Below, in pieces: positions 33,098 to 54,640 of a stretch of 54,731 nucleotides of DNA (position 1 is the stretch's first letter; each line of letters begins with the position of its first letter). Both the position numbers and the translations under genes were made by a program. The DNA comes from Candidatus Uhrbacteria bacterium CG_4_9_14_3_um_filter_41_35. GTDB taxonomy: Bacteria > Patescibacteriota > Patescibacteriia > UBA9934. The stretch is taken from positions 1 through 54,731 of the forward strand of contig PFWT01000025.1 of the NCBI GenBank assembly GCA_002791275.1, given 5' to 3'. The notes under the pieces were generated by a model that saw nothing but the letters and a program-made list of their open reading frames with translations, was not told the origin of the DNA and made no database searches.

Positions 33098-33126
33098 TTG
33101 ACAAAGCTTTGAAAATATGATATATT
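33098..33126 (+). promoter_or_regulatory. near-consensus sigma-70 promoter of the orphan small-ORF unit
   Basis: TTGACA (33098-33103), 17-nt spacer, TATATT (33121-33126) with TGa just upstream. Confidence 0.6.
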
Positions 33127-33183
33127 ACTTGGTCGTTTAATGATGACTAAAACTGCTCTTAAAAAAGAGCTGGAGGTGAAAAC

Positions 33184-33291
33184 ATGAATATCAAAAAGCC
33201 GTTTTTTAATATTCAAAAACTCACAAAGTTCCTGACCGTCCACCACAGGGCGAATGGACATTCAATTATTTACACCAATCTGGAGGAATGA
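33184..33291 (+). CDS. putative 35-aa peptide (MNIKKPFFNIQKLTKFLTVHHRANGHSIIYTNLEE)
   Basis: GGAGG (33172-33176) lies 7 nt before the ATG. Hand translated. There is no homology evidence. Confidence 0.3.
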   Translation: MNIKKPFFNIQKLTKFLTVHHRANGHSIIYTNLEE

Positions 33292-33296
33292 GTTTT

Positions 33297-33395
33297 ATGT
33301 CTTTGACAATCTCGGAGGAGAGAGTTGGGACTCATGATATTCAAGTGCCTGGACTCGGCCTCGCTGACTCCATGCACACACCCGAATATCTCTGA
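33297..33395 (+). CDS. putative 32-aa peptide (MSLTISEERVGTHDIQVPGLGLADSMHTPEYL)
   Basis: GGAGG (33282-33286) lies 10 nt before the ATG. The SD sits inside a 14-bp long-range inverted repeat. There is no homology evidence. Confidence 0.3.
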   Translation: MSLTISEERVGTHDIQVPGLGLADSMHTPEYL

Positions 33396-33486
33396 AACAT
33401 ATCACTGCTTGCAGTGATCACTGGATCGCGTTGGGCTAAGCTTGACAGCTCGACCTCCAGATTGGTGAGAGTAATTATTATAGTTT

Positions 33487-33522
33487 AAAAAAACCGCCGG
33501 TATTATTACTTGGCGGTTTTTT
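33487..33522 (+). terminator. intrinsic terminator of the small-ORF unit
   Basis: A-run, stem AAACCGCC..GGCGGTTT, then T-run. Confidence 0.7.
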
Positions 33523-34135
33523 GTTATTACTGTTTTACCAAAGCGAACGACAATGTGGGTCGAAGGATCTCCTTCGCCCTGTGCTGAACCGACATTTGCT
33601 TGGTGATTCGGTAATGAGATTCTTCGGTGTGATTCACGTTCACCTCTGAATGACGGTTTGGTTAGATTCTTCGTCGTGGTTCACGCAGGCTCTGGCACCG
33701 CTCTCATCATAACGCCACATGACGCCTCGATCGGCTTCAAGTGGTAAATCAACAAGCAAGCAAACAGACACTCTGTTTTGCAACCTTAGACCCAGCTGGG
33801 GTCTTTTTTTATACACACCCTTTTCGGGCGAATAAGACATTATCCAAAACTACACCCTCTCTAACAACCTGGACCTATATTTACGGTGTACTGCAACATT
33901 TAGATTCTTTGCCATGGCTTACATCAGGCTCAGAATGACGGTTTAGTTAGATTCTTCGACGTGATTCACGCCAAGGTCTGAATGACGAAGCGATAAGATT
34001 CTTCGACGTAATTCACATCAATCTCAGAATGACGGTTTGGTTTATTTGGTGTAATTGTATTATTTTGACCCGCACCCATACCGTCATCCTGAAGCGAGCG
34101 CCAGGTTACGCTGAAGGATCTCCTGCGTTCTTTAT
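33522..34135 (+). repeat. composite intergenic repeat, copy B (about 2.3 tandem units, interrupted)
   Basis: 47-bp subunits start at 33617, 33664, 33902, 33949 and 33996. 34032-34058 is identical (27/27) to 54614-54640. 34051-34127 repeats the start of the copy C unit. Confidence 0.85.
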
Positions 34136-34139
34136 TGTA

Positions 34140-34895
34140 TCAAAACCCACTCAACCTCTTCACCTCTTGCCACGCTAACTCAAGTGTTGCTCGTGCGGTG
34201 TCTGCGATTGCTTTTGAGGTTATTTCAATAGCTATTATATTTTCCGCGTACGAAAATAAAACTAGTCTGTCACCAGCTACTGTCATTTCACCCGGGGTTA
34301 TAAACAAACTTGGTGAGATCTGAAGTATTTCAATATTTGATAAATTACCCGTCGTAACCTCTCTGTCGGTTACTAAAATCGAACGAACGTGCGTTTTAGT
34401 TTTTATAGATTCTTTACGATTTGATTTTTCACTGTCGCCAAGCAGTTTTAAAAAATTATCGTAGCCCACAATTTGTAAAATATCATCCCCTCTTTCTTCA
34501 AACTCACGGCGCATTAATTGCAGTCCATCAAGGGTTTCAATATACCTGATTTTTGGGGCCGAACTACCTGTTGACTTAATTGCTTGTAAACTAAGTTTTA
34601 AATCATCCGCAAGTTCAATTTTTTCTTTTAAAACATCGGCCTGAATTTTTAGAGCTGTCACCAACCTTTCTGGAGGCTCAGCTGTATAGTATCGCTCCTC
34701 ACCTTTTTGTATAAAAATAACTAAACCTTTTTGCTTTAAGGTTTCCAGCACATTATAAACTGTTGCTCGATTAATATTAGATTTTCGAGCAATTACAGTA
34801 ACGTTTGCTTTTCCGAGCTGTAAAAGCGCTAGGTAAACTGCCGATTCTTTTTCGGAAAACCCAAGCTGTTCTAATCTACTTATTAAACTCTTCAT
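34140..34895 (-). CDS. TrmB-family transcriptional regulator
   Basis: N-terminal LGFSEKESAVYLALLQLGKANVTVIARKSNINRATVYNVLETLKQKGLV winged-helix motif. Confidence 0.8.
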   Translation of the reverse strand: MKSLISRLEQLGFSEKESAVYLALLQLGKANVTVIARKSNINRATVYNVLETLKQKGLVIFIQKGEERYYTAEPPERLVTALKIQADVLKEKIELADDLKLSLQAIKSTGSSAPKIRYIETLDGLQLMRREFEERGDDILQIVGYDNFLKLLGDSEKSNRKESIKTKTHVRSILVTDREVTTGNLSNIEILQISPSLFITPGEMTVAGDRLVLFSYAENIIAIEITSKAIADTARATLELAWQEVKRLSGF

Positions 34896-36012
34896 AGGCC
34901 AAAATGCGTCTTAATATCTCAAAAGTCAGTCTAGCAGTTTCCTCCCATGAAAAATCGTGAACTCGCGCCGAACCCCTTAAAACCAACTCACCCCTTAATT
35001 TATCGTCGTCAGAAATTAACCTCATGTTCTCCGCCCAAGCATCAATATCTCCAGGATCCGCAAATAGACCAGCGTCTTCCACAACTTCGTGAAGAGCGGG
35101 AATACTAGAAGCGAGCAGTGGCGTTCCGGAAGCCATTGTTTCAAGTGCTGGCAAACCAAAGCCCTCACACCAACTTGGCAAAACATAAGCTAGCGCCCCC
35201 GCCATTAGAGCTGGAACATCCGCGTCTCTAACATATCCTAATAGTTTTATACGGTTTTTAAACTTTGAACTGTTAATTGCCCTTTTTATATCCTCTGCCC
35301 CAAAACCATATTTACCACCCAGCACCAAATCAGCTTTTCCATTTTCTGCATACTTTGAAAAAGCCCTAATTAAATTAGCGATATTTTTCTTTGCCTCAAG
35401 TCGCCCTAAATAAAAGAAATATTCTCCCTGATTCAGTTCGTAGTGAAACAAAGTTTCAGTTAAGCCGTCCGCGTGTGCCATAAAACGTGACAGATCTGCA
35501 GAGAGCGGCACCACATCAATCTTGGTTTCCGCAACTTTATATATTTTTAGCAGATCATTTTTTGTGGCATTAGAAACAGCAATCAGTTGATCTGAAGATT
35601 TTATTTGTCTTGCAATCGCCTTTTCCTGCCTTATCTTTTCTTCCTCTGAGTAAACCTCGGGTTTTAGATGAAAGGCAACGTCGTGTACTGTAGCCACAAT
35701 TTTTGTTTTGTTTGAAAAAAACGGCACCTCGTGAGCAGGTGAAAAAAATACATCCGGCGACCTAGTTAAAAGCTCAAAGCTAAGCCGAGCTTTTGTCCAG
35801 CCTTTTTTAAATGGCCAGTTTAATATCCGCCACTCAAAACCTGTCGGTAACTCCGCAAACTCTGGAACGACTGCACTTGAATAAAGAAGCACCCGCTCCC
35901 CCTCCTGAAGGGGTAGTTTTATTAAATTACTAATCAAATAAAACAGGTACCATTCAGTCCCTGTTCGATTCGTTCTTGTGAGCGGATTAACATCAATCCC
36001 GTAAGTCGTCAT
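34876..36012 (-). CDS. glycosyltransferase family 1 (GT4-like)
   Basis: C-terminal PSWCEGFGLPALETMASGTPLLAS (E-x7-E region). The start is set at Met 36012, just after the mreB stop. Confidence 0.8.
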   Translation of the reverse strand: MTTYGIDVNPLTRTNRTGTEWYLFYLISNLIKLPLQEGERVLLYSSAVVPEFAELPTGFEWRILNWPFKKGWTKARLSFELLTRSPDVFFSPAHEVPFFSNKTKIVATVHDVAFHLKPEVYSEEEKIRQEKAIARQIKSSDQLIAVSNATKNDLLKIYKVAETKIDVVPLSADLSRFMAHADGLTETLFHYELNQGEYFFYLGRLEAKKNIANLIRAFSKYAENGKADLVLGGKYGFGAEDIKRAINSSKFKNRIKLLGYVRDADVPALMAGALAYVLPSWCEGFGLPALETMASGTPLLASSIPALHEVVEDAGLFADPGDIDAWAENMRLISDDDKLRGELVLRGSARVHDFSWEETARLTFEILRRILAYEEFNK

Positions 36013-36016
36013 ACTA

Positions 36017-37039
36017 CTAGTTCGTGAACACACTTCGTTTATAGGCCTCCAAGTTTTCAAGAGCTAAACCAGTACCTCTGGCTACGGCCATCTGTGGCTC
36101 TTCAGTTACATAGGTTGGTACGCCGGTTGATTCTGCAATTAATCTATCCAGATTTCGAAGCTGTGAACTTCCACCAGAAATTACAATACCTTTATCCATC
36201 ACATCTGCTGAAAGTTCGGGCGGAGTTTTAAACAAAACCTCTTTCAAGGTTGTTAAAATACCCTCGAGTAAAGACTGAATTGCCTGAGTTACGTCGTCTG
36301 AAGAGACCTCAATAATCTTCGGAAGCCCAGTGATCATATCCCGACCCTTAACTTCCATCGTGAGTTTTTCTTCAAGATACATTGCTGAACCGACATTGAT
36401 CTTAATTTCCTCAGCCGTTCGTTCACCGATTGCCAAGTTATAGTTTCGGCGGACGTGCTCCATAATAGCGAGGTCAAATTTCACTCCTCCAATTCTAACA
36501 GAATCGCTAGCTACAATTCCACCGAGTGAAATGACTGCCATTTCAGTGGTACCTCCCCCGATCTCCACAATCATATGCCCTGACGGGCTACCGATTGGAA
36601 TATTTGCCCCAATCGCCGCCACGATCGGTTGTTTAATGATAAAGGCAGCTTTTGCTCCTGCTGAAATCGCAGCGTCGATCACCGCTCGTCGTTCCGTTGA
36701 AGTAATACCACCCGGTACCGCAACCATTACTTCTGGTCTAAAAATCCTCACTCCGCCCACCGCTTTGTTAATAAAATAACGAAGCATAGCTTCGGTGGTT
36801 CGATAATCGGCAATCACTCCATCTTTGAGTGGACGTTTTGCAACAATCGTATCCGGTGTACGCCCAAGCATATCCTTTGCTTCCTTACCAACCGCCAAAA
36901 CTTTTTTATCTATCTTTGAAATCGCCACCACCGACGGTTCGTTTATAATAATTCCTCTTTTAGGAAGATAAACCAAAACACTCGTGGTTCCTAAATCAAT
37001 ACCGATCTTCTTTGAAAACACCATAAATCTATAATTCAA
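36017..37039 (-). CDS. mreB: rod-shape-determining actin homolog MreB
   Basis: IGIDLGTTSVLVY, VVAVPGGITSTERRAV, EIGGGTTE and ISGGSSQLRNLD motifs. Confidence 0.9.
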   Translation of the reverse strand: MNYRFMVFSKKIGIDLGTTSVLVYLPKRGIIINEPSVVAISKIDKKVLAVGKEAKDMLGRTPDTIVAKRPLKDGVIADYRTTEAMLRYFINKAVGGVRIFRPEVMVAVPGGITSTERRAVIDAAISAGAKAAFIIKQPIVAAIGANIPIGSPSGHMIVEIGGGTTEMAVISLGGIVASDSVRIGGVKFDLAIMEHVRRNYNLAIGERTAEEIKINVGSAMYLEEKLTMEVKGRDMITGLPKIIEVSSDDVTQAIQSLLEGILTTLKEVLFKTPPELSADVMDKGIVISGGSSQLRNLDRLIAESTGVPTYVTEEPQMAVARGTGLALENLEAYKRSVFTN

Positions 37040-38747
37040 CAGTGAAGACGGTGTCTTGAGACAAAATAGAATTTAAATAATATTTATTGTCACCAAATTG
37101 TTCTTCACTTTCAACTGGCTCTGCAGCTCTCACTTTTTTACCAAAATCAAGGTCTAAAGTCAAAGTTACCGCATCAACCCCAATCTGTTTCAAAACCTCA
37201 AGTTGATAAACCCCACCCTTTATTGCGCTCGCAATATCGGCCGATAAATTAAAGGTTACTTCTACCTCAGCTTCACTACCCGCTAGCACCGAGTGTGTAA
37301 ATGCCACCCGAGTGTACGCCCCTTGGTCTTCTGAAAAAAATCCTGCGGGTCCAGCTGTTACAACACTCTGACCTTTGATTAAAATATTAGTCACTCCCTG
37401 CCAGTCCTCACGGTTTTTGTTGAAGTAGTTAATTTTAACAGTACCGGTATAACCATTTTTATTTGACGTAATTCTATATTCAGTTTTGCGGGTTAAAAAT
37501 AAATCACTGGCCGTACTCGTGTTTGCGTCTGCAACCATCAGTAAATCATCATAATTTGCCTCGACTCGACCCGACCAGCTGGCGTCGTCGTACGATTTTT
37601 GTACCTCATCTGAAAATGAGTAGACAACAAGTTTCTTTTCTTGAATACTTTTCCTTACGATCTCAAGAAATTGAAAAAGTTCACTACCATTAAAATTATA
37701 GAGCGTCATCAATAACTCCTGTGAAACTTTAGCGGTTTCTCCACTATTACTAAACGATAATTTTTTTGCGTTTACTGAACCGATTTGTGCCACCTCGTTT
37801 AAAAAATCTGGGGTAATCCCAACAACAGCATTTACTTTTGGAGCTGGTAAGCCGTGCTCCTTGGCTATTAGCTGAACATTATCGGCCGCCCGTTCTGCTA
37901 CCACGGAAAAATCCGGCAACCAGTATGTGTCGTTTATTGTTAACGGCTCAAAATCTACTTTTTGAACCTGACCATTTTTCATAAAAACAAGTCCGACCTG
38001 ATAAATTTCACCACCTGATGGTTTATAAGTTTCGTTATCTAAAAACAACACTAGCCACTGCGCACCACCCTGAAGTCCAGCAAACTCATCAACACCAGCT
38101 GTAATTGGAATTACCACATCGAGCACACTTGAATACTCACTAAACTTATCACTCACCATGACTACTACATCTTTGAAAACTGGGTGCAGATTCAGGCGCT
38201 TTAATTCCTCAAGTTTTGCGTTAATTACTTTTGTTCTAATGACCACCCTTTGCAGATCAGCGTTTACAAATTTAATATTTTGAAGCAGTAACTCTCTTTT
38301 GTCCGCTGGTAAATCGTTAAAACTAATATCTAGGTTATCCTGATCAACCACCTTATTCATAATGAGTAACGCGTCTTCAGCCACGTGTGTCATATCGACT
38401 GCCACGTCTAAACTTATATCTACGCCTTTAACTTGGTCCCCCACCCAGGGCAGGATTTTTAGCCAACTTAAAAACTTAATCCCTGAACTCATCTCCTCTA
38501 GACCCAACCTAATATTTGGAATTTCACCTTCTATTTTTGAAAATTCACTGCTTGCGAGATCAACCTGAATGTTATCGAAAGTTCCAGTCGTGCTCGACAA
38601 TCCACTAGCAATTCGAGTTGCCCCAAAAATTGTTAAGCCGATTAAAATCAAAAAACCGATTACAAAAAGAAAAACGCCAGCGATAAATACCGAGCGTTTT
38701 CCCTGTTTTTTATTGCTTGCATCTTGTAAAAATTGGTTTTTCTTCAT
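37029..38747 (-). CDS. membrane-anchored large extracytoplasmic protein, DUF4012-like (tentative)
   Basis: Single N-terminal TM helix, about 530 aa outside the membrane, and a position among envelope glycosyltransferases. The family assignment is from memory only. Confidence 0.55.
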   Translation of the reverse strand: MKKNQFLQDASNKKQGKRSVFIAGVFLFVIGFLILIGLTIFGATRIASGLSSTTGTFDNIQVDLASSEFSKIEGEIPNIRLGLEEMSSGIKFLSWLKILPWVGDQVKGVDISLDVAVDMTHVAEDALLIMNKVVDQDNLDISFNDLPADKRELLLQNIKFVNADLQRVVIRTKVINAKLEELKRLNLHPVFKDVVVMVSDKFSEYSSVLDVVIPITAGVDEFAGLQGGAQWLVLFLDNETYKPSGGEIYQVGLVFMKNGQVQKVDFEPLTINDTYWLPDFSVVAERAADNVQLIAKEHGLPAPKVNAVVGITPDFLNEVAQIGSVNAKKLSFSNSGETAKVSQELLMTLYNFNGSELFQFLEIVRKSIQEKKLVVYSFSDEVQKSYDDASWSGRVEANYDDLLMVADANTSTASDLFLTRKTEYRITSNKNGYTGTVKINYFNKNREDWQGVTNILIKGQSVVTAGPAGFFSEDQGAYTRVAFTHSVLAGSEAEVEVTFNLSADIASAIKGGVYQLEVLKQIGVDAVTLTLDLDFGKKVRAAEPVESEEQFGDNKYYLNSILSQDTVFTVEL

Positions 38748-39571
38748 TTTATTTTTTTAAGTCTAGGATTCTCTTGACCCTTATATTTCTTTTGATATTT
38801 AAAAAAGCTTGAAATATGAATCCAGGTCATTTTAGAAGTAAGTTGTTTAAACAAACCACCATCTGCCGAAGCGCGCCGGTGGTAGTGAGTCATCACAGCA
38901 CCCGGGTGATAAACAACTTTGTAACCTTTTTCCCAGAACCTTCGGCAAAGATCATTGTCTTCATAGTACAGGAAGAAACGTTCGTCGAACATCCCAACGT
39001 CAAACAAGGCTTCACGCCTTGTAAAAATTGCCGCCCCAATCATAGCGTCCACCTCCATATCCTGTGAGTGGTCGTCGTTCACCATTAAGTAGTGGTCCAC
39101 AATTTCTTTACCTCTTTTTGTTTTTCCAAGCGGTGTGCGTCTGTACATTGGTAACGAGAGTCCTGGTAATCTGTAACACGAGTACTGCAAACTGCCGTCT
39201 GAGTTTCGAAGTTGTGGTCCGCAGACACCAACCTCTTTGTTGTCGTCCATAAACCGAACCAGTTCTTCGATCGAACCAGCACCAACCACAATATCTGGGT
39301 TGAAAATGAAAATATAACGTCCCTTTGCGATGTTAATTCCCTCGTTCATGGCACCACCAAAACCTTTGTTTTGGTCATTCGCAATATACCTAACATGTGT
39401 AAAATCAGACTTCAAAACATCGTACATGCCTGCTGCTGGATTGTTATCAACCACAATAATTTCGTAGTTCACTTTAGGTGCAGCTCGACCGATACTTTTC
39501 AGAGTTTGTCTTATTTGCTCTTTCTCAAAAGTATGAACAATGATTATTGAAACATCAACTATTTCGGACAT
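38744..39571 (-). CDS. glycosyltransferase family 2
   Basis: VSIIIV.., VVDNNP and NKGFGGAMNEG motifs, a DxD-like FNPD, and a later YYEDNDLCRR motif. Confidence 0.8.
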   Translation of the reverse strand: MSEIVDVSIIIVHTFEKEQIRQTLKSIGRAAPKVNYEIIVVDNNPAAGMYDVLKSDFTHVRYIANDQNKGFGGAMNEGINIAKGRYIFIFNPDIVVGAGSIEELVRFMDDNKEVGVCGPQLRNSDGSLQYSCYRLPGLSLPMYRRTPLGKTKRGKEIVDHYLMVNDDHSQDMEVDAMIGAAIFTRREALFDVGMFDERFFLYYEDNDLCRRFWEKGYKVVYHPGAVMTHYHRRASADGGLFKQLTSKMTWIHISSFFKYQKKYKGQENPRLKKIK

Positions 39572-40604: not shown

Positions 40605-40730
40605 AGCCTTAGTCTACTTTAAGTTAAGCTTCTGGTCAAAAAAAGTTATAAATCCTGATTTTTTCATAATTTGTACAGTAAATCTGAACAACAAATATAG
40701 CTAATACTAGCCAATAATATATGCATTTAC

Positions 40731-40759
40731 TTGACAAAAGCTTTAAAATGTGTTATTAA
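40731..40759 (+). promoter_or_regulatory. near-consensus sigma-70 promoter of the high-GC cassette
   Basis: TTGACA (40731-40736), 17-nt spacer, TATTAA (40754-40759) preceded by TGt. About 26 of 32 positions match the promoter at 33096-33127. Confidence 0.6.
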
Positions 40760-40766
40760 ATGTGCA

Positions 40767-40967
40767 TAGTAAAGATGAGAAAAGGAGGTACGAGCCCTTG
40801 ATCATCCGTTCACAATTCAGAAACCTACTTAAACAGCTACAAGGGCTTGTAAAAGTAATTTTCACAAGGAGAGACCCTAGCCTGGGGTAATTAGGCATTA
40901 AGCATTATTATGCTTAAAAAGACTGGATTGTGTATTTCTCACCGACATATATAATCCAGTCTTTTTC
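40767..40967 (+). ncRNA. putative structured leader or small RNA ending in an intrinsic terminator; it could encode a 30-aa peptide (40798-40890, TTG start)
   Basis: Stem AGCCCTTG (40793-40800) / CAAGGGCT (40840-40847), hairpin 40898-40917, and terminator AGACTGGATT..AATCCAGTCT+TTTTT (40920-40967). GGAGG lies at 40784-40788. Confidence 0.35.
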
Positions 40968-41036
40968 ATTTTCGAAATTGACTACAGAAACTACAGTCCC
41001 CTGTCTGGGACTTTAAATAAATGACCGGAGGTCATT

Positions 41037-41492
41037 ATGACCAAGATTGGAATGGATATCCCGGCAACAAATTTTCCCGCGCAACGCCTCGTGGCGCTGC
41101 GCCAGGCACTCCGCTACGACCTCGTGGGCGATTTCGCCCACGAGGTCGTCGTCACCGACCAGGGCGACATCCTCGCCCAGACGGTGTGGGTGCATACCCA
41201 CACCGGCGAGCTCGTAAAGAGCCCGCCGGTGTCAAAGCGAGACGGACTCGTCCGTCTCGCCGACCACCTCGCCTGGCTCCAGGCGAAGGTGGAGACGTCC
41301 GCAAAGGTCGCGGCGCGACGCGCTGCGACCGAGCGACACCGAAACTCGTTCGAGTTCGGTGTCGTGGGCGGGGGCGATAAGCGCCCCCGCCGACTACAAG
41401 GCCAAGAAGGCCAAGAAGTCGGCGGAGTCCCGGAAGATCCGGGACTCAATGAAGGGAGGCTACTCCCTGAAGAGCGGGCGATAAGCGGCTGA
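41037..41492 (+). CDS. hypothetical protein on a high-GC foreign segment; the 3' part is probably frameshifted (alternative end 41484)
   Basis: GGAGG SD at 41027-41031. Strong G/C third-position bias holds in this frame up to about 41370. After the palindrome at 41367-41391 the bias moves to the +1 frame (ADYKAKKAKKSAESRKIRDSMKGGYSLKSGR*). Confidence 0.55.
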   Translation: MTKIGMDIPATNFPAQRLVALRQALRYDLVGDFAHEVVVTDQGDILAQTVWVHTHTGELVKSPPVSKRDGLVRLADHLAWLQAKVETSAKVAARRAATERHRNSFEFGVVGGGDKRPRRLQGQEGQEVGGVPEDPGLNEGRLLPEERAISG

Positions 41493-41565
41493 CCCCTACA
41501 ACATGCAAATGTTTGTAGGGGTCCCATACAATGTTCATAAAATTGCTTGTGAGTATTGCTGGGAA

Positions 41566-41598
41566 ATAAAAAAATCAACTGCAAGCAGTTGATTTTTT
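41566..41598. terminator. bidirectional intrinsic terminator
   Basis: A8, stem ATCAACTGC-AA-GCAGTTGAT, then T6. It lies between the convergent high-GC ORF and the GT2 synthase gene. Confidence 0.75.
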
Positions 41599-44009: not shown

Positions 44010-44010
44010 A

Positions 44011-48119: not shown

Positions 48120-49453
48120 AGTGTCAGTTTTTTCTTCATAGCCGAGATAGCTGATGCTTTGTCGCTCCATGGAATTTTTTTACCGTGTGCCACTGCCATT
48201 ACTGGCTCGTTACCCTTACCGGTTAGAATGACAATATCCCCTTTTTCCGCCAGCATAATTGCTTTTTCTATCCCAGCATTTCGGTTATCAATCAAAAATA
48301 AATCCACCCCCTCTTTTTTTCCAGCACTTACTGCACCTTTTGCCACCTGTTCAATAATTTTGCGCGGATCATCGTCGTACGGATCTTCGTTAGTCACAAT
48401 CACAATATCCTCCTGTTCGCCAGCAAGGCGACCAATAGGGGCTCGTCTTGCTACATCTCGGCCACCGCCTGCTGAACCGTGGACGCCAATAATACGCTTT
48501 GGCTTTAGTGCTTTCACGGACTTTAACAGAGCCGAAATAGCGTATGGTTCATAGGCATAGTCCACAATCACCATAAAATCCTGCCCAAGGTCCACAATCT
48601 CAAAGCGCCCTGGCAGGGGCTCAACTTTTTCTGCAGATGCAACAATATCACGCAACGGCAACCCAACCGCTACCAGTGCCCCCATAGCTGCCACAATATT
48701 TTTTATCTGAAAGTTAGCGCTTAGCCGAACCTTAAACTCGAGCCCATTTACGGCCATCGTCACCCCAGTCTGGCTGTGCTTAACAATGTTAGCAGACAAA
48801 CGATCTTGGCCAAAATCTTCACCATCTCCAGCCTCGTCCTCGTTGAACTGATACCAAATAGTTCGATCCGCCCTGAACTTAGCAAAGTAATCGGAATATT
48901 CATCGTCAGCATTTAAAACACTGATTTTATATATCACCTTCTTGTTGATCGTCTTTTTAGGTGAGTCGATAAGGTGTTTAAATAGCTTCCCTTTAGCTTT
49001 TTTATAGTTTTCAAAACCACCGTGCGCTTCAATATGTTCTGGTGTTAAATTCGTAAAAACCACCACATCATAATTTATACCAAGATGCCGAAACTGATCT
49101 ATGCCCTGTGATGATGTTTCAATAATCGCGTAATCACAACCCGTTTTTACCATTTTATGCATCAGGCTTTGCAGATAAAACCGACCAGGCATAGTCATTT
49201 TCATTTTGTTTTCTATTGCCTCACCAGCAATCTTAAAACCTGCGGTTGTGGTATAACCTACCTTTGCTCCGGTCGCTACAAGCATTTGTTCGATAAACTG
49301 TACGGTTGATGATTTACCGTTCGTTCCAGTCACGCCAATAACGATTAGCTTATTTGAAGGATAACCATAAGCAAACGCTGAAATTTTCGCTAGCGACCAG
49401 TGATAACTCTGGAGCCATGGTTTTGGGATTATTTGTTTGATTTTATGTAGCAT
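48116..49453 (-). CDS. murE: UDP-N-acetylmuramoyl-L-alanyl-D-glutamate--diamino acid ligase MurE
   Basis: GVTGTNGKSST P-loop and Mur ligase middle and C-terminal domains. The start is placed at Met 49453 (alternative 49474), because the track ORF extends into murD. Confidence 0.85.
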   Translation of the reverse strand: MLHKIKQIIPKPWLQSYHWSLAKISAFAYGYPSNKLIVIGVTGTNGKSSTVQFIEQMLVATGAKVGYTTTAGFKIAGEAIENKMKMTMPGRFYLQSLMHKMVKTGCDYAIIETSSQGIDQFRHLGINYDVVVFTNLTPEHIEAHGGFENYKKAKGKLFKHLIDSPKKTINKKVIYKISVLNADDEYSDYFAKFRADRTIWYQFNEDEAGDGEDFGQDRLSANIVKHSQTGVTMAVNGLEFKVRLSANFQIKNIVAAMGALVAVGLPLRDIVASAEKVEPLPGRFEIVDLGQDFMVIVDYAYEPYAISALLKSVKALKPKRIIGVHGSAGGGRDVARRAPIGRLAGEQEDIVIVTNEDPYDDDPRKIIEQVAKGAVSAGKKEGVDLFLIDNRNAGIEKAIMLAEKGDIVILTGKGNEPVMAVAHGKKIPWSDKASAISAMKKKLTL

Positions 49454-49562
49454 ATTCTTACACCAGCCTATCATTTTCGGTGGGTTTAAAACAAATTTGG
49501 GGACTTCAGTTTCGCCTAAACTGGCAGAAACCGGCCCCCATTTTATAATCAACAATCTAAAA

Positions 49563-51041
49563 CTACAAATTACGAACTTCTTCACGGAACTGTTCACCTC
49601 TATCAAATTCGTTAGCAAAGAGGTTAAAACTAGCTGCACCAGGGCTCAGCAAAACAATATCGCCCACTGACGAAACAGCCTTTGCCCTTGTAACCGCTTC
49701 TTTCATTGATTTTACGCCAGTCTCGATAGAGACTTTACCATTAAGAAGTTTTTCAATTTTATCGGAAGCGTCCCCCTCAAAGAGAATTACGTGCTTACAT
49801 GCTTTTGGAATTTCGTCGGTCATTGGTTCGTAGTCGAGCATCTTATCCATTCCGCCGGCAATTAAAATCACGTCTTTGTCGGCACCAAAATGTTTTAAAG
49901 CTGCGACCACTGCGGTTGGGTTAGTAGCGGTTGTGTCGTTAATATAGCTAATTTCGTCCACCTCACGCACCAATTCCTGACGATCAGAAACACCTTTGAA
50001 CTCACGTGCTACTTGTCTTACTACCTCTACTGGAATACCACGAAGCAAACCAGACGCAACAGAAGTCAGAATATTTGAAACACTATGCTCCCCCTTTAGG
50101 CCTACTTCAGCCAGCGGGATAATTTCAGTTTCAGCCATCTCTCTTCTAAATACAATCATGCCATCTTCCCTCACATAACAACCGTCGTGCTCTGGCTGGT
50201 CAATCTTCGAGCACCAGAAAAGCTTCCCCTTCACTTTTGTTTCCATTGACCTTACTGTTTCGTGATCCCAGTTCAAAACCGTGTACTGTTCCTCTGACTG
50301 CCACTCATAAATAATTTCTTTTGAGTGAATGTAGTGACCATAGGAGTGGTACCTGTTTAAATGGTCTGGGTAAACGTTGGTTAGCACGGAAATATCCGGC
50401 CCACGTTTTAGATCTATAAAAGCCTGGGGCATACTTTCAAGTAACCAACTTGAGAGCTCGAGTACGATAAGTGTAGGTTCGCCTCTTGTTAAAATTTCGT
50501 CGAGCATTTCAAGTGGTGATACTTTAATATTACCGGCAATTACGGTTTTTTCATCAATCTTTTCGAGCATCTCGCCAATCATTTTTGTGGTTGTAGTCTT
50601 TCCCTTTGTGCCGGTTACCGCAATGATTGCGTAGGGGCAGTATCTAAAAAATAAACTTACATCTGATTCAATTGAAACACCTTTTGCCCGCGCCGCTACT
50701 ATAAACTCAGACTCACTCGGTACTCCAGGATTTTGAACAACACAATCGACATCTACGAAATCTTCTTCTCGGTGCTCACCTAAAACAAAAAGTGGCGCAT
50801 AAATAGTGCGGTTTGGATACATATCTCGGTACTTATGGTACCAGTCCATCACTAGAGACATCGATTCTTCGAGTTCGACCTCATCTTTAAGATCTGTAAT
50901 AATGGTTTGCGCTCCGTGACGAATTAGCCATTTTGCAGCACCAAGACCACTTCCTTGTTTGTAACGACCAAGACCCATCACAGTTACCACAGCGTCTTGA
51001 AAGTTTTCGATTTTAGATAAATCCATATTATATAAATCCAA
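49563..51041 (-). CDS. murD: UDP-N-acetylmuramoylalanine--D-glutamate ligase MurD
   Basis: N-terminal Rossmann fold VMGLGR, a P-loop AVTGTKGKTTTT and a Mur ligase C-terminal domain. Confidence 0.85.
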   Translation of the reverse strand: MDLYNMDLSKIENFQDAVVTVMGLGRYKQGSGLGAAKWLIRHGAQTIITDLKDEVELEESMSLVMDWYHKYRDMYPNRTIYAPLFVLGEHREEDFVDVDCVVQNPGVPSESEFIVAARAKGVSIESDVSLFFRYCPYAIIAVTGTKGKTTTTKMIGEMLEKIDEKTVIAGNIKVSPLEMLDEILTRGEPTLIVLELSSWLLESMPQAFIDLKRGPDISVLTNVYPDHLNRYHSYGHYIHSKEIIYEWQSEEQYTVLNWDHETVRSMETKVKGKLFWCSKIDQPEHDGCYVREDGMIVFRREMAETEIIPLAEVGLKGEHSVSNILTSVASGLLRGIPVEVVRQVAREFKGVSDRQELVREVDEISYINDTTATNPTAVVAALKHFGADKDVILIAGGMDKMLDYEPMTDEIPKACKHVILFEGDASDKIEKLLNGKVSIETGVKSMKEAVTRAKAVSSVGDIVLLSPGAASFNLFANEFDRGEQFREEVRNL

Positions 51042-51109
51042 ATGTTAAAGCTCTAATGTCAAATAATAAGATAGCTTTGACATTGGATATTAGAAACTTG
51101 ATATTAAAA

Positions 51110-53728
51110 TTATACCACAGACATCTTTTTTAGACGTTTAAGATTGTAGATTTCTTTGACAATTTCAATAATAATCAACTGAACAAAAGCTAAGCCAAAC
51201 AGAATCACCCACTCCTGCGTAGATAATTGGGTTAATTTAAATAGATCTCTTAGCATAGGAATTGAAAACGGTATAAACAGCATAACAAAACCAAGTACCA
51301 CACTCGCTACCAACAACCGGTTTTCAAATGGGTGTGAGGTGAAGATGCTTCGACGAAATTTCCGAACAGCAAAAATGTAAATCAGTGAATCTAGACCGAG
51401 TGTTAGGAAGATAAACGTACGAATTTCTTCGATATTTGTACTGTGGTGAAGTAAATAGAAATAAATCCCAAACAACAAGAAATCCGTGAGCATTCCCACC
51501 AAGAAAATGAGAATCTTCATTTCACTGTTTAAAATTGGCTCACTCTTTGGCCGTGGTGGTTCGTCCATAATACCGTCTTCGCCTGGCTCAAAAGTAAGCG
51601 CCACACTTGGTAACCCATCTGCGATTAAATTAATCCACAGAATCTGAGCTGGTAAAATCGGCAGTGGTAGCGACAACGCCAAGGCACCAACCACTAAAAT
51701 AATTTCACTAAAACTATCCGACAAGAAGTAGACCATCATTTTGCGGATATTATCAAAAATTGTTCGGCCCTCATAAATTGCGTCGATAATAGTTTTTACA
51801 TTATTGTCGAGCAAAATCATATCCGCTGTTTCTTTTGCCACCGCCGTTCCAGAACCAAGCGCAATACCAATATCCGACGCTTTTAGGGCTGGTGCGTCGT
51901 TCACACCATCACCAGTCATCGCTACTGATTTACCCCGACTCTGCCAAGCCCGAATAATCCTAAGTTTATGTTTAGGAGCTACCCGGGCGTAAATGTAGAA
52001 CTGATCCACCCGTTTTTTTAAATCTTCGTCATTCATTTCATCGAGCTCAGCTCCAGTCAAAATCGCCTGAGCCCCTGCTTCTATTCCAGCCTCAAGCGCA
52101 ATCGCCCGAGCTGTTTGTGGGTGGTCGCCTGTAATCATAACTACCCTAAGGCCGGCTTTTTTGGCTTTGGCGATGGTTGCATTTGTCTCTTTCCTGATCG
52201 GATCTTTCAAGCCCACAAAACCAATTACTTTGAGATCATTAACTAAAGAATCTGTAAGCTCCTTATGTTCAGGCATTTCTTCTGCTTTTGCCACTAACAG
52301 CACACGTAAACCGCTTGCAGTCATTTCTTCAAAGGTTTTCAGGAGTTGTTGACGTTCCTTGTCACTTACATCGGCCTTTGCTAACAACATTTCTGGAGCG
52401 CCAACAGCGTATAAAATTCGGTGTTTTTTAAACGTAAAAGAACTAGCTGAGTATTTTTTTATTGAATCAAATGGTAGCTCGCTTATTAGTGTGTATTTAT
52501 CACATTCTAAATTAGGTTCTAAACGCTCGGTGTAACGTCTGAGCGCAATTTCGGTTGGCGAACCTTTCAACACCTCTTTGTGTGTTTTATCGTCTATCTC
52601 TAAAATCGATGCATTTGTTGTTAAAATTGCCCGCCCAATTTCATAAAGCTTTTGGTCATTACTACCGATTGGGACTATATCATTACCAACTCTGATTTCG
52701 GAAACTTCCATCTGCCCAGTGGTTAAAGTTCCGGTTTTATCCATACAGATCACCGATACACTCCCTAAGGTTTCAGCTGAAACAAGTTTTCTGACCAGTG
52801 CCTTCTTTTTTAGAATTCTCTGCATACCGATTGCTAAAATCACAGTAAGCGAAACCGCCATTCCTTCTGGCACCGAGGAAACAGCTATCGCTACCGATAG
52901 GTAGAACATTTCGGCAATATTAAAACCCGCCAAAGATCCGCCAATGAAAATGATTCCTGCCAAGGCAAGCACTGCCAATCCAAGAATGCTCGCAAAACGA
53001 CCAAGTTGTGCTTGTAGTGGTGTATCTTCGTCCTCAATCTCTGAAACAAGCTGAGATATTTTTCCGATTTCTGTATGCAAACCGATCGCTGTAACCAAAA
53101 TCTGCGCGTGGCCACCAACCACAACAGTCCCAGCAAAAACCATATTTTTTTGATCGGCAATCGCTAACTCTGACGCTACCGCCTCTGAATGTTTTTTTAC
53201 GGCACTTGATTCACCGGTTAGGGCTGACTCGTCCACTGAAAAAGTTTGCGCATCGATCACACGACCGTCTGCTGTAATTTTTTCACCCGCAGCTAATAGC
53301 AAAATATCACCCACAACAATTTGAGAAGCTGAAATTTCGTGAATTTTACCCTCTCGTTTTACATTAACAGTTTGTGGCAGATAAGCCTGAAGCGCGTGAA
53401 GTGAACGATCTGCCTTATACTCCTGAAAAAAGCCAAGTACCACATTTAGAGTTACCGCAAGACTAATCACTATTACATCAAAAAACTCTTTTAAAAATAA
53501 GCTTACTATTGCAGCAAAAATCAAGATGAGCATAAAAGGGCTCATAAATTGCTGAATAAAAATAGAAAATACGGCCCTTGGTGGCTGTTTCGGAATCTCA
53601 TTTACTCCGTTTTCCCGTAATCGACGCTCCGCCTCTTTTACTAATAATCCCTTTTTTGAGCTAGAAAATGCTTCAAAAACATCTTTTTTGGACTGCGCGT
53701 GCCAGGAAATTTGATTTTTTACCTCCAT
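51110..53728 (-). CDS. cation-transporting P-type ATPase (type II, Ca2+/Mg2+-like)
   Basis: TGES, ICMDKTGTLT, MITGD and MTGDGVNDAPAL motifs, with about 10 TM segments. Confidence 0.9.
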   Translation of the reverse strand: MEVKNQISWHAQSKKDVFEAFSSSKKGLLVKEAERRLRENGVNEIPKQPPRAVFSIFIQQFMSPFMLILIFAAIVSLFLKEFFDVIVISLAVTLNVVLGFFQEYKADRSLHALQAYLPQTVNVKREGKIHEISASQIVVGDILLLAAGEKITADGRVIDAQTFSVDESALTGESSAVKKHSEAVASELAIADQKNMVFAGTVVVGGHAQILVTAIGLHTEIGKISQLVSEIEDEDTPLQAQLGRFASILGLAVLALAGIIFIGGSLAGFNIAEMFYLSVAIAVSSVPEGMAVSLTVILAIGMQRILKKKALVRKLVSAETLGSVSVICMDKTGTLTTGQMEVSEIRVGNDIVPIGSNDQKLYEIGRAILTTNASILEIDDKTHKEVLKGSPTEIALRRYTERLEPNLECDKYTLISELPFDSIKKYSASSFTFKKHRILYAVGAPEMLLAKADVSDKERQQLLKTFEEMTASGLRVLLVAKAEEMPEHKELTDSLVNDLKVIGFVGLKDPIRKETNATIAKAKKAGLRVVMITGDHPQTARAIALEAGIEAGAQAILTGAELDEMNDEDLKKRVDQFYIYARVAPKHKLRIIRAWQSRGKSVAMTGDGVNDAPALKASDIGIALGSGTAVAKETADMILLDNNVKTIIDAIYEGRTIFDNIRKMMVYFLSDSFSEIILVVGALALSLPLPILPAQILWINLIADGLPSVALTFEPGEDGIMDEPPRPKSEPILNSEMKILIFLVGMLTDFLLFGIYFYLLHHSTNIEEIRTFIFLTLGLDSLIYIFAVRKFRRSIFTSHPFENRLLVASVVLGFVMLFIPFSIPMLRDLFKLTQLSTQEWVILFGLAFVQLIIIEIVKEIYNLKRLKKMSVV

Positions 53729-53818
53729 ACACGAACATTATATCACGAAGATAAATTATCTAATATTAGCCTGAAAATTTCATTTTAAAATTGACAAAAT
53801 GAGGAAAATGTAATACAG

Positions 53819-53847
53819 TTGACAGTTCTTTTATTTCTTTGTATTAA
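53819..53847 (+). promoter_or_regulatory. sigma-70-type promoter of the two-gene small-protein unit
   Basis: TTGACA (53819-53824), 17-nt spacer, TATTAA (53842-53847). A second TTGACA lies at 53791. Confidence 0.55.
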
Positions 53848-53860
53848 ACCTGGAGGCTAA

Positions 53861-54202
53861 ATGGTGATTATAATTATTACCAGTGGCTTCTGTGCACTGG
53901 TTCTGTTCAATGTACTAGCGAGCACTGCGCAGCCGGTCAAAAGCCAAAAAGCGCCAGCGAATGCTTACTGGCGAAACCAAAAAATCGCCAGCTTGAAAAA
54001 CCACCAGCTCGAAACGTTGCTTGCTGAGATTTGCATCAGCTCAACTTCCACTGAGCAAGTTAAGTGGCGGATCGAAACGGAACTTGGGTATACTGGTGAC
54101 ACCTTTGTAAAAAAAATGTGTGTAGGCAGGAATTCGATCGAGTTCTTTGTCTTCCTAGTAGCGCCAGACGGAAATCTGATAACCTATCTGCACAACAAAT
54201 AG
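53861..54202 (+). CDS. hypothetical small exported or membrane-anchored protein (113 aa)
   Basis: GGAGG lies 4 nt before the ATG. The N-terminus is hydrophobic (VIIIITSGFCALVLFNVLA). No motif was recognised. Confidence 0.6.
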   Translation: MVIIIITSGFCALVLFNVLASTAQPVKSQKAPANAYWRNQKIASLKNHQLETLLAEICISSTSTEQVKWRIETELGYTGDTFVKKMCVGRNSIEFFVFLVAPDGNLITYLHNK

Positions 54203-54212
54203 GAGGTCATTG

Positions 54213-54350
54213 ATGGATAAAGAAAAAGTTGCGGCTTATCACCGCCAAACACTTCACAACAAGTTGATGGCGACGAGCTCCTTGCTCTTCTGCACCATCG
54301 TTGTCGTGGTGTACAGCGACAGAGTTGTACACGTCCTGAGTCTTGGCTAA
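54213..54350 (+). CDS. putative 45-aa single-TM peptide (MDKEKVAAYHRQTLHNKLMATSSLLFCTIVVVVYSDRVVHVLSLG)
   Basis: AGGAGG lies 6 nt before the ATG, which is 10 nt after the upstream stop. A strong terminator follows. Hand translated. Confidence 0.45.
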   Translation: MDKEKVAAYHRQTLHNKLMATSSLLFCTIVVVVYSDRVVHVLSLG

Positions 54351-54372
54351 AGCCAGACCCAGAAAAAACCAC

Positions 54373-54400
54373 ACGCCCCGTCTGCAAAGACGGGGCGTTT
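54373..54400 (+). terminator. intrinsic terminator
   Basis: 11-bp stem ACGCCCCGTCT-GCAA-AGACGGGGCGT followed by TT.TCTT. Confidence 0.7.
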
Positions 54401-54406
54401 ATCTTA

Positions 54407-54640
54407 TGTAATTGTATTATTTCGACCCGCACTCATTCCGTCATCCTGAAGCGGGCGTCGAATTTGGCTGAAGGATCTCCTTCGCTTTCGTGCTGAATCG
54501 AGACTTGTTTACGATGTAATTCAACACTGAGATTCTTCGGTGTGGTCCACGCTCACCTCAGAATGACAGGGTTTGTGATTTACTTCAAAATAATTCACGT
54601 CAGTCTTAAAATTACGGTTTGGTTTATTTGGTGTAATTGT
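54407..54640 (+). repeat. composite intergenic repeat, copy C (one 225-bp unit bounded by TGTAATTGT direct repeats)
   Basis: TGTAATTGT occurs at 54407-54415 and 54632-54640. The internal palindrome GAAGGATCTCCTTC and 47-bp subunits starting at 54530 and 54577 are present. It matches copies A and B as described. Confidence 0.85.

Follow-up and report, generated by a model that had tools for sequence, protein, structure and literature searches.

Nearly all genes of the window (the 54,731-nucleotide stretch analysed here, from a groundwater Patescibacteria genome, Uhrbacteria-like) lie on the minus strand, and three plus-strand units interrupt them. Are these units copies of one recurring module that travels with a composite repeat, as an earlier note proposed, or do unrelated elements happen to share a layout? 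The promoters, GGAGG sites, hairpins and repeat which that note listed are all present. The single co-travelling module is not borne out: the three units are unrelated to one another and the repeat is separable from them. Probably the "module" is a coincidence of layout involving a conserved structured RNA, two lineage-specific orphan-gene insertions and REP-like repeats.

Unit 1 and the GGAGG sites of all units are placed as follows.
33098-33522, plus strand: unit 1, a structured-RNA gene (fold, covariation, homologs)
33098-33126, plus strand: promoter P1, sigma-70-type, TTGACA-17-TATATT with extended TG (11/12 matches)
33133-33271, plus strand: RNA 5' extension, unconserved in relatives
33272-33476, plus strand: conserved RNA core (147.8 bits with the R1 covariance model; 35 pairs in RNAalifold)
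33489-33522, plus strand: intrinsic terminator, a AAAAAAACCGCCGG...CCGGCGGTTTTTT-type hairpin, read and folded
33173, 33283, 33315, 40784, 41028, 53853 and 54202, plus strand: GGAGG sites, read from sequence

Promoter P1 is divergent from holB and drives a transcript some 390 nt long, of which the core makes up about 200 nt; in the relative L181, TTGACA-17-TATAGT stands at the equivalent place. A structured RNA had been suspected here, and the fold of the unit (-139 kcal/mol, z = -8.2) and its covariation support it. Its core comprises helix P1, a long-range pairing of CUGGAGG with CCUCCAG; a junction reading GAGAGAG; a hairpin that varies; the P3-P5 hairpin, which surrounds CAAGUGC...UGCACACACCCG; and hairpin P6, with AUCACU after it. 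The GGAGG sites described as Shine-Dalgarno sequences do occur in all three units, but those at 33283 and 33315 sit within this core, the former being the 5' strand of helix P1. A 35-aa ORF with a strong Shine-Dalgarno sequence (33184-33291) lies in the 5' extension and its stop codon falls within the 5' strand of helix P1; no counterpart was seen in L181, and the small ORFs of unit 1 show no conservation.

The RNA core defines a family present in at least 11 other Patescibacteria contigs, and in all contigs with readable neighbours it adjoins or occupies the gap between holB and the TrmB-like gene. Full-length homologs scoring 98-159 bits (nhmmer and covariance model) occur in L142, L144, L153/L176, L162, L171, L175, L181, L184 and L186, and a 48-bit homolog in L183. 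The order holB, RNA, TrmB is the same in L181 as in the window, without the repeat, and the RNA also lies beside a holB homolog in L176, L175 and L152. In a 12-sequence alignment, paired cells reach 95% against 33-40% with slid partners, and 22 pairs show compensatory changes; none of 500 shuffles attained the observed values. A 49-nt block is 88% identical in a relative whose TrmB-like protein is 53% identical. Unit 1 is a single-copy gene. Because it stays next to holB even in relatives in which holB identity has dropped to 39-46%, it looks vertically inherited rather than mobile, and this synteny already contradicts the proposal that it is a mobile cassette.

Conserved bacterial structured RNAs with their own promoter and intrinsic terminator include raiA, OLE and ROOL. 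The unit-1 RNA resembles this class in its multi-helix structure supported by compensatory changes, its invariant single-stranded stretches, its restriction to one clade with one copy per locus, its own promoter and intrinsic terminator, and its neighbours, which reveal no function. It differs from known structured RNAs in having no sequence or structure match in Rfam (window and homolog loci searched against 4227 families, permissive thresholds included), and all contigs in which it has so far been seen are of Patescibacteria type, with the RNA inside or next to the holB-TrmB gap where the neighbours are readable.

How might such an RNA act? In L181, L175 and L184, as in the window, a strong terminator directly follows helix P1. 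Since the RNA is intact in these four genomes (107-157 bits, all helices kept), the best inference is that it is a stand-alone, trans-acting molecule; in three of the four (the window, L181 and L184) the next downstream gene converges on it. The same terminators and convergent genes make it unlikely that the RNA acts in cis as a leader (a riboswitch-like element or an RNA thermometer) that exposes or hides the Shine-Dalgarno sequence of a downstream gene, the regulated gene having been lost in the window with the terminator and repeats in its place; the genes downstream of the RNA are also unrelated orphans without a common function. A leader would nevertheless fit the 3' strand of helix P1, CACCUCC, which resembles an anti-Shine-Dalgarno sequence, and the multi-helix junction with its invariant single-stranded stretches, which is aptamer-like. 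It would also fit the same-strand ORF that follows the RNA in L144, L142, L153/L176, L162, L171 and L186, the Shine-Dalgarno-like site before the downstream ORF in all five loci inspected for one, and L183, where the RNA heads seven co-oriented small genes.

Unit 2 lies between two glycosyltransferase genes.
about 40645-41598, plus strand: unit 2, lineage-specific insertion, length about 950 bp (junction comparison with relatives)
40731, plus strand: promoter P2, TTGACA-17-TATTAA
40765-40972, plus strand: short structured transcript (fold z = -6.6)
40918-40968, plus strand: long terminator hairpin of the short transcript, read from sequence
41037-41492, plus strand: high-GC orphan gene (65% GC, GC3 0.81)
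41493-41521, no strand assigned: hairpin CCCCTACA...TGTAGGGG, read from sequence
41569-41598, no strand assigned: bidirectional terminator; together with the preceding hairpin it closes both unit 2 and the minus-strand glycosyltransferase gene upstream

For this unit the idea of an accessory insertion holds: relatives have only 39-41 nt at the junction, compared with 997 nt in the window, and the minus strand still carries the conserved GT2 promoter at 40639-40611. Neither terminal inverted repeats nor a target-site duplication were found at the edges. The short transcript, with a possible 30-aa TTG-start ORF (40798-40890) inside it, occurs in this species only and matched nothing in Rfam, Pfam or R1. 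The orphan gene has a GC3 of 0.81 against 0.29-0.40 for backbone genes, and no homologs of its protein were found. It also carries a C5/C4 polymorphism at 41384-41388: the C5 run of the window frameshifts the gene while the C4 allele encodes 148 aa. The small ORFs of 30-151 aa that had been reported are present, but the 151-aa ORF is the frameshifted form of the 148-aa one. We propose that a foreign insertion of about 950 bp split the glycosyltransferase gene pair and would have brought the short terminated transcript together with the 148-aa orphan gene and its high-GC codon usage.

Genomic islands occur next to tRNA or tmRNA genes. The unit-1 RNA might mark, or help run, a site-specific acquisition hotspot, beside which unrelated high-GC orphan genes would insert again and again; unit 2 would be another cassette of this class that has landed. 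ORFs with a GC3 of 0.76-0.95 flank the RNA in L144, L142, L176, L184 and L186, compared with 0.32-0.50 for the TrmB genes of these genomes where measured; four of the flanking ORFs and the unit-2 ORF are mutually unrelated, and two searched against a protein collection gave no homolog. Moreover, the holB-TrmB gap, about 0.6 kb at its shortest, reaches at least 6 kb in other genomes, and the same palindrome follows both L144 ORFs. We nevertheless regard this explanation as quite improbable: no integrase, transposase or reverse transcriptase lies near the RNA in any locus examined, unit 2 is neither adjacent to the RNA nor provided with a copy of it, and hotspots between conserved genes are frequent even without dedicated machinery. 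The frequency of genomic islands in groundwater Patescibacteria (PMC12455944) also counts against the hotspot explanation. Like the genomic islets of these bacteria (PMC12455944), units 2 and 3 and the RNA-adjacent genes of relatives are host-discordant in composition and lineage-specific, in a gap that varies between syntenic genomes; unlike them, the very small insertions here hold one or two genes in 0.5-1 kb and no integrase, and the foreign genes exceed the host in GC and lack any detectable homolog. Integrons offer another parallel, with small ORFs of foreign composition followed by imperfect palindromes and, in the relatives, variable cargo downstream of a conserved element. However, an IntI integrase is absent, as is a co-oriented cassette array in the window, and unit 2 comes with promoters of its own, which the gene cassettes of integrons usually lack.

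Unit 3 is a species-specific small orphan gene pair whose products have hydrophobic segments.
53791-54398, plus strand: unit 3, encoding two orphan proteins with hydrophobic segments
53791-53847, plus strand: two tandem TTGACA promoters, read from sequence
53791, plus strand: second unit-3 promoter, TTGACA-17-TACAGT
53819, plus strand: promoter P3, TTGACA-17-TATTAA
53861-54202, plus strand: orphan protein of 113 aa, hydrophobic segment at the N-terminus
54213-54350, plus strand: 45-aa ORF with a hydrophobic stretch and GGAGG upstream
54373-54398, plus strand: intrinsic terminator hairpin (11 bp, 8/11 G-C)

That the unit is species-specific agrees with the larger protein having no relative among 1.84 billion representative proteins. 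Its C-terminal domain is modelled as two main helices followed by three strands, and the model gave no structural match at E < 0.2. The 45-aa ORF is annotated as a gene in two independent assemblies and matched no protein family. The earlier note had recognised no motif in the products of the units, and our family searches of the small ORFs were negative as well; its suggestion of toxin-like peptides finds no support, as these ORFs matched no toxin, defence or phage family. Unit 3 does recall type I toxin-antitoxin loci and small hydrophobic toxins by its 45-aa hydrophobic peptide behind a strong Shine-Dalgarno sequence. In contrast to such loci, it has no identified antisense RNA or overlapping partner, and the 45-aa ORF is without a family match and co-transcribed with the 113-aa orphan protein.

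The covariance model of the unit-1 RNA has no match in units 2 and 3, even with filters off, and the proteins of the units show no relationship when compared with one another; the three units therefore do not form one family. The proposed common ancestry of promoters P1 and P2 has suggestive support only. With 24/32 matches they rank first in similarity among the 275 promoter-like pairs of the window (mean 15.6 matches, sd 2.3), but the runner-up pair has 22. That P1 and P2 are the closest promoter pair of the window is a point against coincidence as the explanation.

The composite repeat occurs at three loci of the window only, in copies that are 77-93% identical. It consists of two diverged hairpin subfamilies of one element, GTCATYCTGA...GAAGRATCT, in inverted orientation: alpha (GTCATCCTGA...GAAGGATCT) and beta (GTCATTCTGA...GAAGAATCT).
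18023-18167, no strand assigned: copy 1, an inverted alpha/beta doublet (repeat comparison)
33528-33685, no strand assigned: block a, with a 5'-truncated alpha, spacer, inverted beta and half beta
33686-33896, plus strand: non-repeat segment interrupting the array, read from sequence
33897 to about 34128-34143, no strand assigned: block b, with three beta units, the 19-nt linker GTTTATTTGGTGTAATTGT and an alpha unit
54397-54640, no strand assigned: copy 3, with linker, alpha, spacer, inverted beta, degenerate beta and linker

Copy 1 sits in the gap where tRNA-Trp and a lipoprotein-like gene on the opposite strand converge, some 100 nt beyond the tRNA gene. It does lie downstream of the lipoprotein-like gene, as had been noted, but about 270 nt past its stop and with no terminator detected there. 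Block a matches the complement of 18023-18157 at 77% over 135 nt. The interrupting segment has a plus-strand terminator-like hairpin (33783-33810), shares a 32-nt motif with 624-655 and 700-731, and has no homolog found in relatives. The beta units of block b have a 47-nt period (2.6 copies in TRF), and the block ends about 12 nt short of the stop codon of the TrmB-like gene. Copy 3 is bounded at both ends by the same 19-nt linker. The repeat begins 6 nt beyond the terminator of unit 1 and overlaps the final bases of that of unit 3, so that its reported placement within about 10 nt of two terminators is confirmed.

As RNA, the doublet at 18015-18175 forms a hairpin (z = -3.9); as DNA, doublets fold modestly better than shuffled sequence (z = -1.3 to -1.9), and single alpha or beta units no better. 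The same hairpin type is found in many bacterial phyla, with 106 of 137 units outside long ORFs. Many assemblies break inside the repeat, and all those with the copy-3 locus end at the window end or within about 50 nt past it. To our knowledge, the unit sequence corresponds to no known REP class. In type the array is REPIN/BIME-like; its closest known counterparts are REP and BIME elements and the REPINs that RAYT transposases mobilise (Bertels and Rainey 2011, PMC3116915; PMC3337134). Like them, the repeats are short imperfect palindromes outside genes, occur in arrays concentrated at gene 3' ends, break short-read assemblies and form inverted pairs around a spacer, which allows the doublet to form a long hairpin. 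They differ in that the 55-kb window has no RAYT, single units fold weakly and beta units are also arranged head-to-tail at the 47-nt period.

Could the units nonetheless be a single family of small mobile cassettes, moving with a terminator-seeking composite repeat or targeted by it? The superficial layout common to the three units, the similarity of P1 and P2, the repeat abutting two unit terminators, a true insertion in unit 2, an orphan unit 3, and L144, with its promoter, high-GC ORF and nearby beta-like unit, can be cited in favour. We hold this to be very improbable, given that distant relatives have unit 1 at the same syntenic position and no repeat beside it, that units 2 and 3 have no RNA copy by the covariance model and the unit proteins are unrelated, that unit-2 edges lack terminal inverted repeats and a target-site duplication, and that the window encodes no recombinase (nor, in its 55 kb, a transposase of any kind). 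No alpha or beta unit lies at unit 2, and none was seen next to the RNA in the scanned contigs of relatives. With tRNA-Trp followed by a repeat as well, the idea that the repeat travels with the units fails. The L144 promoter, which is similar, drives an orphan gene of high GC, with the beta-like unit about 230 nt downstream of that gene; the pattern "promoter, foreign ORF, hairpin repeat" therefore does recur to some extent in the clade.

What, then, places the repeat behind the units? Within the window, it occupies two of the five internal convergent gaps and none of the 49 tandem or divergent ones (p about 0.007, hypergeometric estimate); the gap after unit 3 holds a repeat but falls outside this count, its far neighbour lying beyond the window. 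Two of the three repeat loci are thus demonstrated convergent gaps, and all repeats lie behind plus-strand units. The co-occurrence of repeat and units follows from this restriction: the repeat is confined to convergent gaps, and in a minus-strand region such as this one these gaps arise only behind plus-strand units. Both copies in the same orientation start 0-6 nt from a terminator, an observation which fits a preference for insertion at terminators as well as selection against harm.

The alpha and beta repeats may instead be useful to the host, as 3'-end stabilisers, terminators or insulators of converging genes. Their occurrence only at convergent 3' ends, their contact with terminators (the T-rich linker forms the tail of the unit-3 terminator) and the long RNA hairpin of the doublet (z = -3.9) are in line with such a use. 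It is a possibility that we doubt, since three of the five internal convergent gaps have no repeat, the copies are degenerate, truncated and interrupted, and relatives with the same gene layout have none. Rather, a repeat of the REP-like kind would spread as a non-autonomous element or through local duplication, and it would persist only where its insertion is harmless, in the 3'-to-3' gaps between converging transcripts.

The window has a GC content of ~41% and a negative GC skew throughout, and nearly all of its genes lie on the minus strand, including those for RRF, a BNR-repeat protein, holB, a TrmB-like regulator, glycosyltransferases, MreB, FtsE/FtsX, Mur ligases and a P-type ATPase. The TrmB-like protein is residue-for-residue identical on many groundwater metagenome contigs and in NCBI GCA_002795965.1, and its more distant relatives carry the labels Patescibacteria or Candidatus Uhrbacteria. 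Same-species contigs are 99.9-100% identical and are thus uninformative for covariation or selection. An earlier note had described three plus-strand units, each with a promoter, a GGAGG site and a terminal hairpin, as one recurring module that might travel with a composite repeat. All of these elements are indeed present, and the region does hold a structured RNA and accessory insertions; the units, however, do not form a single family and have no link to the repeat. The features concerned are:

33098-33522, plus strand: unit 1, a structured RNA gene (promoter 33098-33126, conserved core 33272-33476)
about 40645-41598, plus strand: unit 2, an insertion with its own promoter
53791-54398, plus strand: unit 3, two orphan ORFs
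18023-18167, inverted: composite repeat, first locus
33528-33685 and 33897-34143: composite repeat, second locus, behind unit 1
54397-54640: composite repeat, third locus, behind unit 3 at the right end of the window

For the predicted transcript of unit 1 (33130-33525) the folding energy is -139 kcal/mol, compared with -94 for shuffled sequences (z = -8.2). By BLAST, a 49-nt block within it (33339-33387) has 88% identity to the contig of a relative, while the TrmB-like proteins of the two share only 53%; position and relative orientation are kept. Metagenome contigs were scanned with a pattern of the invariant bases, CAAGTGC...TGCACACACCCG; about 28 of the 37 matches were due to chance and were removed by nhmmer and a covariance model, further homologs remaining after the nhmmer filtering. 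In the resulting nine-sequence alignment, RNAalifold predicted 35 pairs, and compensatory changes occurred in 21; 95.2% of cells were paired, compared with 34-41% when the partners were slid, and none of 500 shuffles reached the observed values. The covariance model of this RNA (R1) recovered three members from outside its training set (contigs L184, L186 and L183), and with these included the twelve-sequence alignment gave 95.0% against 33-40%, with 22 compensatory pairs. The architecture consists of five parts:

long-range helix P1, CUGGAGG/CCUCCAG
a GAGAGAG junction
a variable hairpin
the P3-P5 hairpin, bearing the invariant CAAGUGC and UGCACACACCCG
the P6 hairpin, then AUCACU

Two GGAGG motifs of unit 1 find another place in this structure: that at 33283, which had been taken for a Shine-Dalgarno site, is the 5' strand of helix P1, and that at 33315 is located inside the conserved core. 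Conservation of the 35-aa ORFs of unit 1 was not found in relatives. One of them (33184-33291), seen only in this species, belongs to a 5' extension of the RNA that is not conserved and has a canonical Shine-Dalgarno site, GGAGGTGA, at 6-nt spacing. Its stop codon falls within the 5' strand of helix P1, which would be unwound if the ORF were translated.

The RNA could be read as a riboswitch or leader, and its conserved structured domain supported by covariation would suit such a role. A leader would occupy the 5' UTR of functionally coherent genes; here the genes downstream are unrelated orphans or are absent. A terminator directly follows the RNA in four genomes, and in three of those the next downstream gene is convergent. 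With its own promoter, a Rho-independent terminator and no conserved ORF, unit 1 has instead the features of a stand-alone small RNA gene; promoter and terminator are both found in the window and in L181, and terminators in L175 and L184. At gathering thresholds, Rfam matched only tRNAs in the whole window, and permissive scans of units 1-3 and five homolog loci returned scattered sub-threshold matches with no consistent family. ARAGORN found no tmRNA. RNase P RNA, SRP RNA, 6S RNA, tmRNA and glycine-riboswitch-like motifs were weighed by eye as candidates and rejected, both because no model matches and on architecture, since the unit-1 RNA forms a multi-helix junction, not a rod, and lacks P4-type pairing. 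The literature on Patescibacteria RNA motifs yielded nothing relevant. The unit-1 RNA is a new family without an Rfam counterpart, of which the window holds a well-supported member.

Where the neighbours could be read, the RNA is conserved in or beside the gap between holB and TrmB across distantly related Patescibacteria. It adjoins a holB homolog in L181, L176, L175 and L152, as in the window, even though these four HolB proteins are only 39-46% identical to that of the window. The layout of L181 is that of the window, with holB, the RNA and a converging TrmB; L181 has nothing else at this place and no repeat, and its RNA has its own TTGACA-17-TATAGT promoter and terminator. The RNA occurs once in the window, and unit 1 looks inherited, not mobile. 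The distance between TrmB and holB varies widely: it is 1.2 kb in the window, drops to about 0.6 kb in L181 and reaches about 2 kb in L186, 2.8 kb in L144, about 3 kb in L184, 4.35 kb in L142 and more than 6 kb in L183. In the last of these (7783-12651), an RNA homolog (48 bits) stands at the head of seven co-oriented paralogous small genes, whose products are membrane-anchored and whose 5' regions recur every 560-790 nt, and the array neighbours a gene with a Bro-N domain.

Unit 2 has a different origin, having been inserted between two glycosyltransferase genes. In relatives these genes are separated by 39-41 nt, a spacer formed by a TTTTTGACC-N17-TAAGCT promoter; the window retains this promoter at 40639-40611 and carries about 950 extra bases up to the upstream stop codon. 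Neither an alpha or beta unit of the composite repeat (see below) nor a copy of the unit-1 RNA is contained in the insert, and no terminal inverted repeats or target-site duplication were seen at its edges. It contains a short structured transcript (z = -6.6) and an ORF of 65% GC (GC3 0.81), the latter preceded by another promoter-like site and a Shine-Dalgarno site. A run of five C (41384-41388) shifts the frame of this ORF in the window, and only the allele with four C gives a sensible frame, of 148 aa with a lysine-rich tail. The C5 form is found in the window and at least three assemblies and the C4 form in three others (compare L001 3413-3859); the run lies within a perfect GC hairpin, GGCGGGGGCG-ATAA-CGCCCCCGCC. 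The polymorphism could be a sequencing error, gene decay or phase variation. No homolog of the ORF was detected in any resource tried, including phage GenBank and IMG/VR, the protein search returning only its own cluster or a fragment of the query, and its AlphaFold model was too poor for a structural search.

The resemblance between the promoters of units 1 and 2 had been taken as a sign of shared ancestry. The pair does rank first among 275 promoter-like pairs in the window, scoring 24/32 against a mean of 15.6 (sd 2.3), with the next pairs at 22 and 21. Many promoters of the window have TTGACAAA, an A-rich spacer and an extended -10 in common, and we read the likeness as mostly consensus.

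Unit 3 encodes ORFs of 113 and 45 aa, both with hydrophobic segments. For the 113-aa protein, no relative turned up among 1.84 billion representative proteins, where the search gave back nothing but its own cluster or a fragment of the query, or in phage and viral collections. AlphaFold models were built from single sequences and had low to moderate confidence; in that of the 113-aa protein the C-terminal domain reached a pLDDT of about 80, and Foldseek returned no match to the unit-3 protein model in the PDB. The suggestion that the units encode toxin-like peptides gained no support, the small ORFs being negative for toxin, defence and phage families in Pfam, PHROGs, PADLOC and NCBIfam. All independent assemblies with unit 3 (L131-L140) stop at the end of the window (54640-54731) or no more than about 50 nt beyond it, and many assemblies of the TrmB locus stop within the repeat array (L003, L004, L006-L009). 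What follows these assembly ends is probably repeated or variable in the population.

The composite repeat is found at exactly three loci, with at least 12 units in 54.7 kb, and its copies are 77-93% identical. Its units belong to two subfamilies of a single hairpin element, alpha (GTCATCCTGA-N-GAAGGATCT) and beta (GTCATTCTGA-N-GAAGAATCT), which are oppositely oriented at all three loci; beta units are also iterated with a 47-nt period. A 19-nt linker occurs at both ends of copy 3 and also separates the beta array from the alpha unit at 34040; matches to this linker on viral contigs were rejected as an unrelated conserved coding stretch. The units are 38-40 nt long; their outer stem, ATYCT/AGRAT, has tandem G.A pairs, and the inner stem is short. 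As DNA strands, single units have no added stability over shuffled sequence (z = +0.95 to -1.8) and the three doublets have a modest one (z = -1.3 to -1.9); as RNA, the doublet at 18015-18175 forms a long hairpin (z = -3.9). A separate 32-nt motif, TTTTATACACACCCTATTCGGTAGAATAAGG, is present in tandem upstream of tRNA-Thr (624-655 and 700-731, the latter copy forming an 11-bp hairpin) and a third time at 33806-33837, within the non-repeat segment that interrupts the array after unit 1.

The repeat starts 6 nt past the terminator of unit 1 and overlaps the last bases of that of unit 3; the earlier note had raised the possibility that it travels with the cassettes. One of the three loci follows a tRNA gene, not a cassette, and no alpha or beta unit adjoins the RNA in the relatives' contigs scanned, the sole unit in L144 lying about 1.5 kb from the RNA beside a different ORF. 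When the 54 internal intergenic gaps of the window were classified, repeats were found in two of the five convergent gaps and in none of the 49 tandem or divergent ones; the third locus, behind unit 3, has no far neighbour within the window and does not count among these gaps. The repeat appears to follow plus-strand units because, in a minus-strand region, convergent gaps exist only behind such units; since the repeats in the classified gaps are confined to convergent ones, the association is no evidence that cassette and repeat travel together. It is a by-product of where repeats are tolerated or inserted. The supposed module dissolves into ordinary parts, namely extragenic palindromic repeats in harmless gaps and small foreign insertions.

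The hairpin type extends well beyond the window. A scan for its generic ends, with one genome per species, gave more than 120 loci among the matches listed; by our estimate, chance alone could produce roughly 90 matches. The matches listed span Acidobacteriota, Chloroflexota, Bacteroidota, Clostridia, Patescibacteria, Omnitrophota and others as well as a Nanoarchaeota MAG, and nearly all share a GTCATYCTGAG-stem-CGAAGRATCT design; 106 of 137 units among them lie outside long ORFs. These hairpins (L011-L130) have a palindromic stem that includes ATCCT/AGGAT, with tandem G.A pairs, and are mostly extragenic, some being arrayed at a spacing of 170-260 nt (L064, L114). We found no Rfam family and no name for the type, and a full-text literature search for the repeat core sequence returned unrelated primers only.

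By its layout, the composite repeat may work like REP/BIME/REPIN elements (PMC3116915, PMC3337134). Their units are imperfect palindromes of about 20-40 nt, and those described here measure 38-40 nt, although single ones fold like shuffled sequence; they are extragenic, as are all three loci of the window; they occur in inverted pairs able to form a long hairpin, as alpha and beta units do at all three loci; and they reach tens to hundreds of copies per genome, to be compared with at least 12 units counted in the window alone. Genomes with such elements encode a cognate RAYT (Y1 HUH) transposase, whereas no transposase domain of any kind was seen among the window proteins scanned. The repeat is a candidate member, its membership unproven because no RAYT was seen in the window and the copies counted are those of the window alone. 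An integron offers another model for small cassettes, but it would combine IntI and attI with co-oriented cassettes ending in attC, whereas the units here are scattered, not arrayed, and no integrase was found in the window or in the relatives' loci.

In several relatives, the RNA is flanked by ORFs with a GC content far above that of the host; such an ORF lies downstream of it on the same strand in L144, L142, L176/L153 and L186, and upstream of it in L184 and L186:

L144: 10902-11678 and 12837-13163
L142: 13407-13736
L176: 12030-12491
L184: 7056-8087
L186: 6648-7292 and 7594-8460

Their GC3 is 0.76-0.95 with a GC2 of 0.39-0.56, a coding signature on the basis of which we read them as coding; the TrmB genes of L144, L184 and L186 have a GC3 of 0.32-0.50. 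The four that were compared have no mutual relationship, and three gave nothing in Pfam. For the 258-aa ORF of L144, a search of 5.8 billion clusters returned no homolog, only its own cluster or a fragment of the query, so that neither of the two high-GC genes searched, this one and the ORF of unit 2, has a detectable homolog. Both high-GC ORFs of L144 have behind them a palindrome of another type, GTAGGGGCGACCGGCCGGTCGCCCCTAC (13282-13309 and about 10850-10875), to which the inverted form at the end of unit 2, CCCCTACA...TGTAGGGG (41493-41521), is related.

Because high-GC orphan ORFs recur beside the RNA in relatives, it is tempting to speculate, though we consider it quite improbable, that the RNA beside holB anchors an undescribed gene-acquisition site in Uhrbacteria-like Patescibacteria, with unit 2 as another landing. 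Unrelated high-GC orphan genes would then be repeatedly inserted or exchanged beside the RNA, each carrying its own Shine-Dalgarno site and, in many cases, having palindromic hairpins behind it. Were this so, the idea of small promoter-ORF-hairpin modules would be right at the level of the clade, though the three units of the window are not one family. The pattern of high-GC orphans could in any case bear on how the reduced genomes of these Patescibacteria acquire genes. To our knowledge, the non-coding RNAs of Patescibacteria have been little studied, and the most useful outcome is the new RNA family itself, whose covariance model could now be applied to all Patescibacteria genomes.
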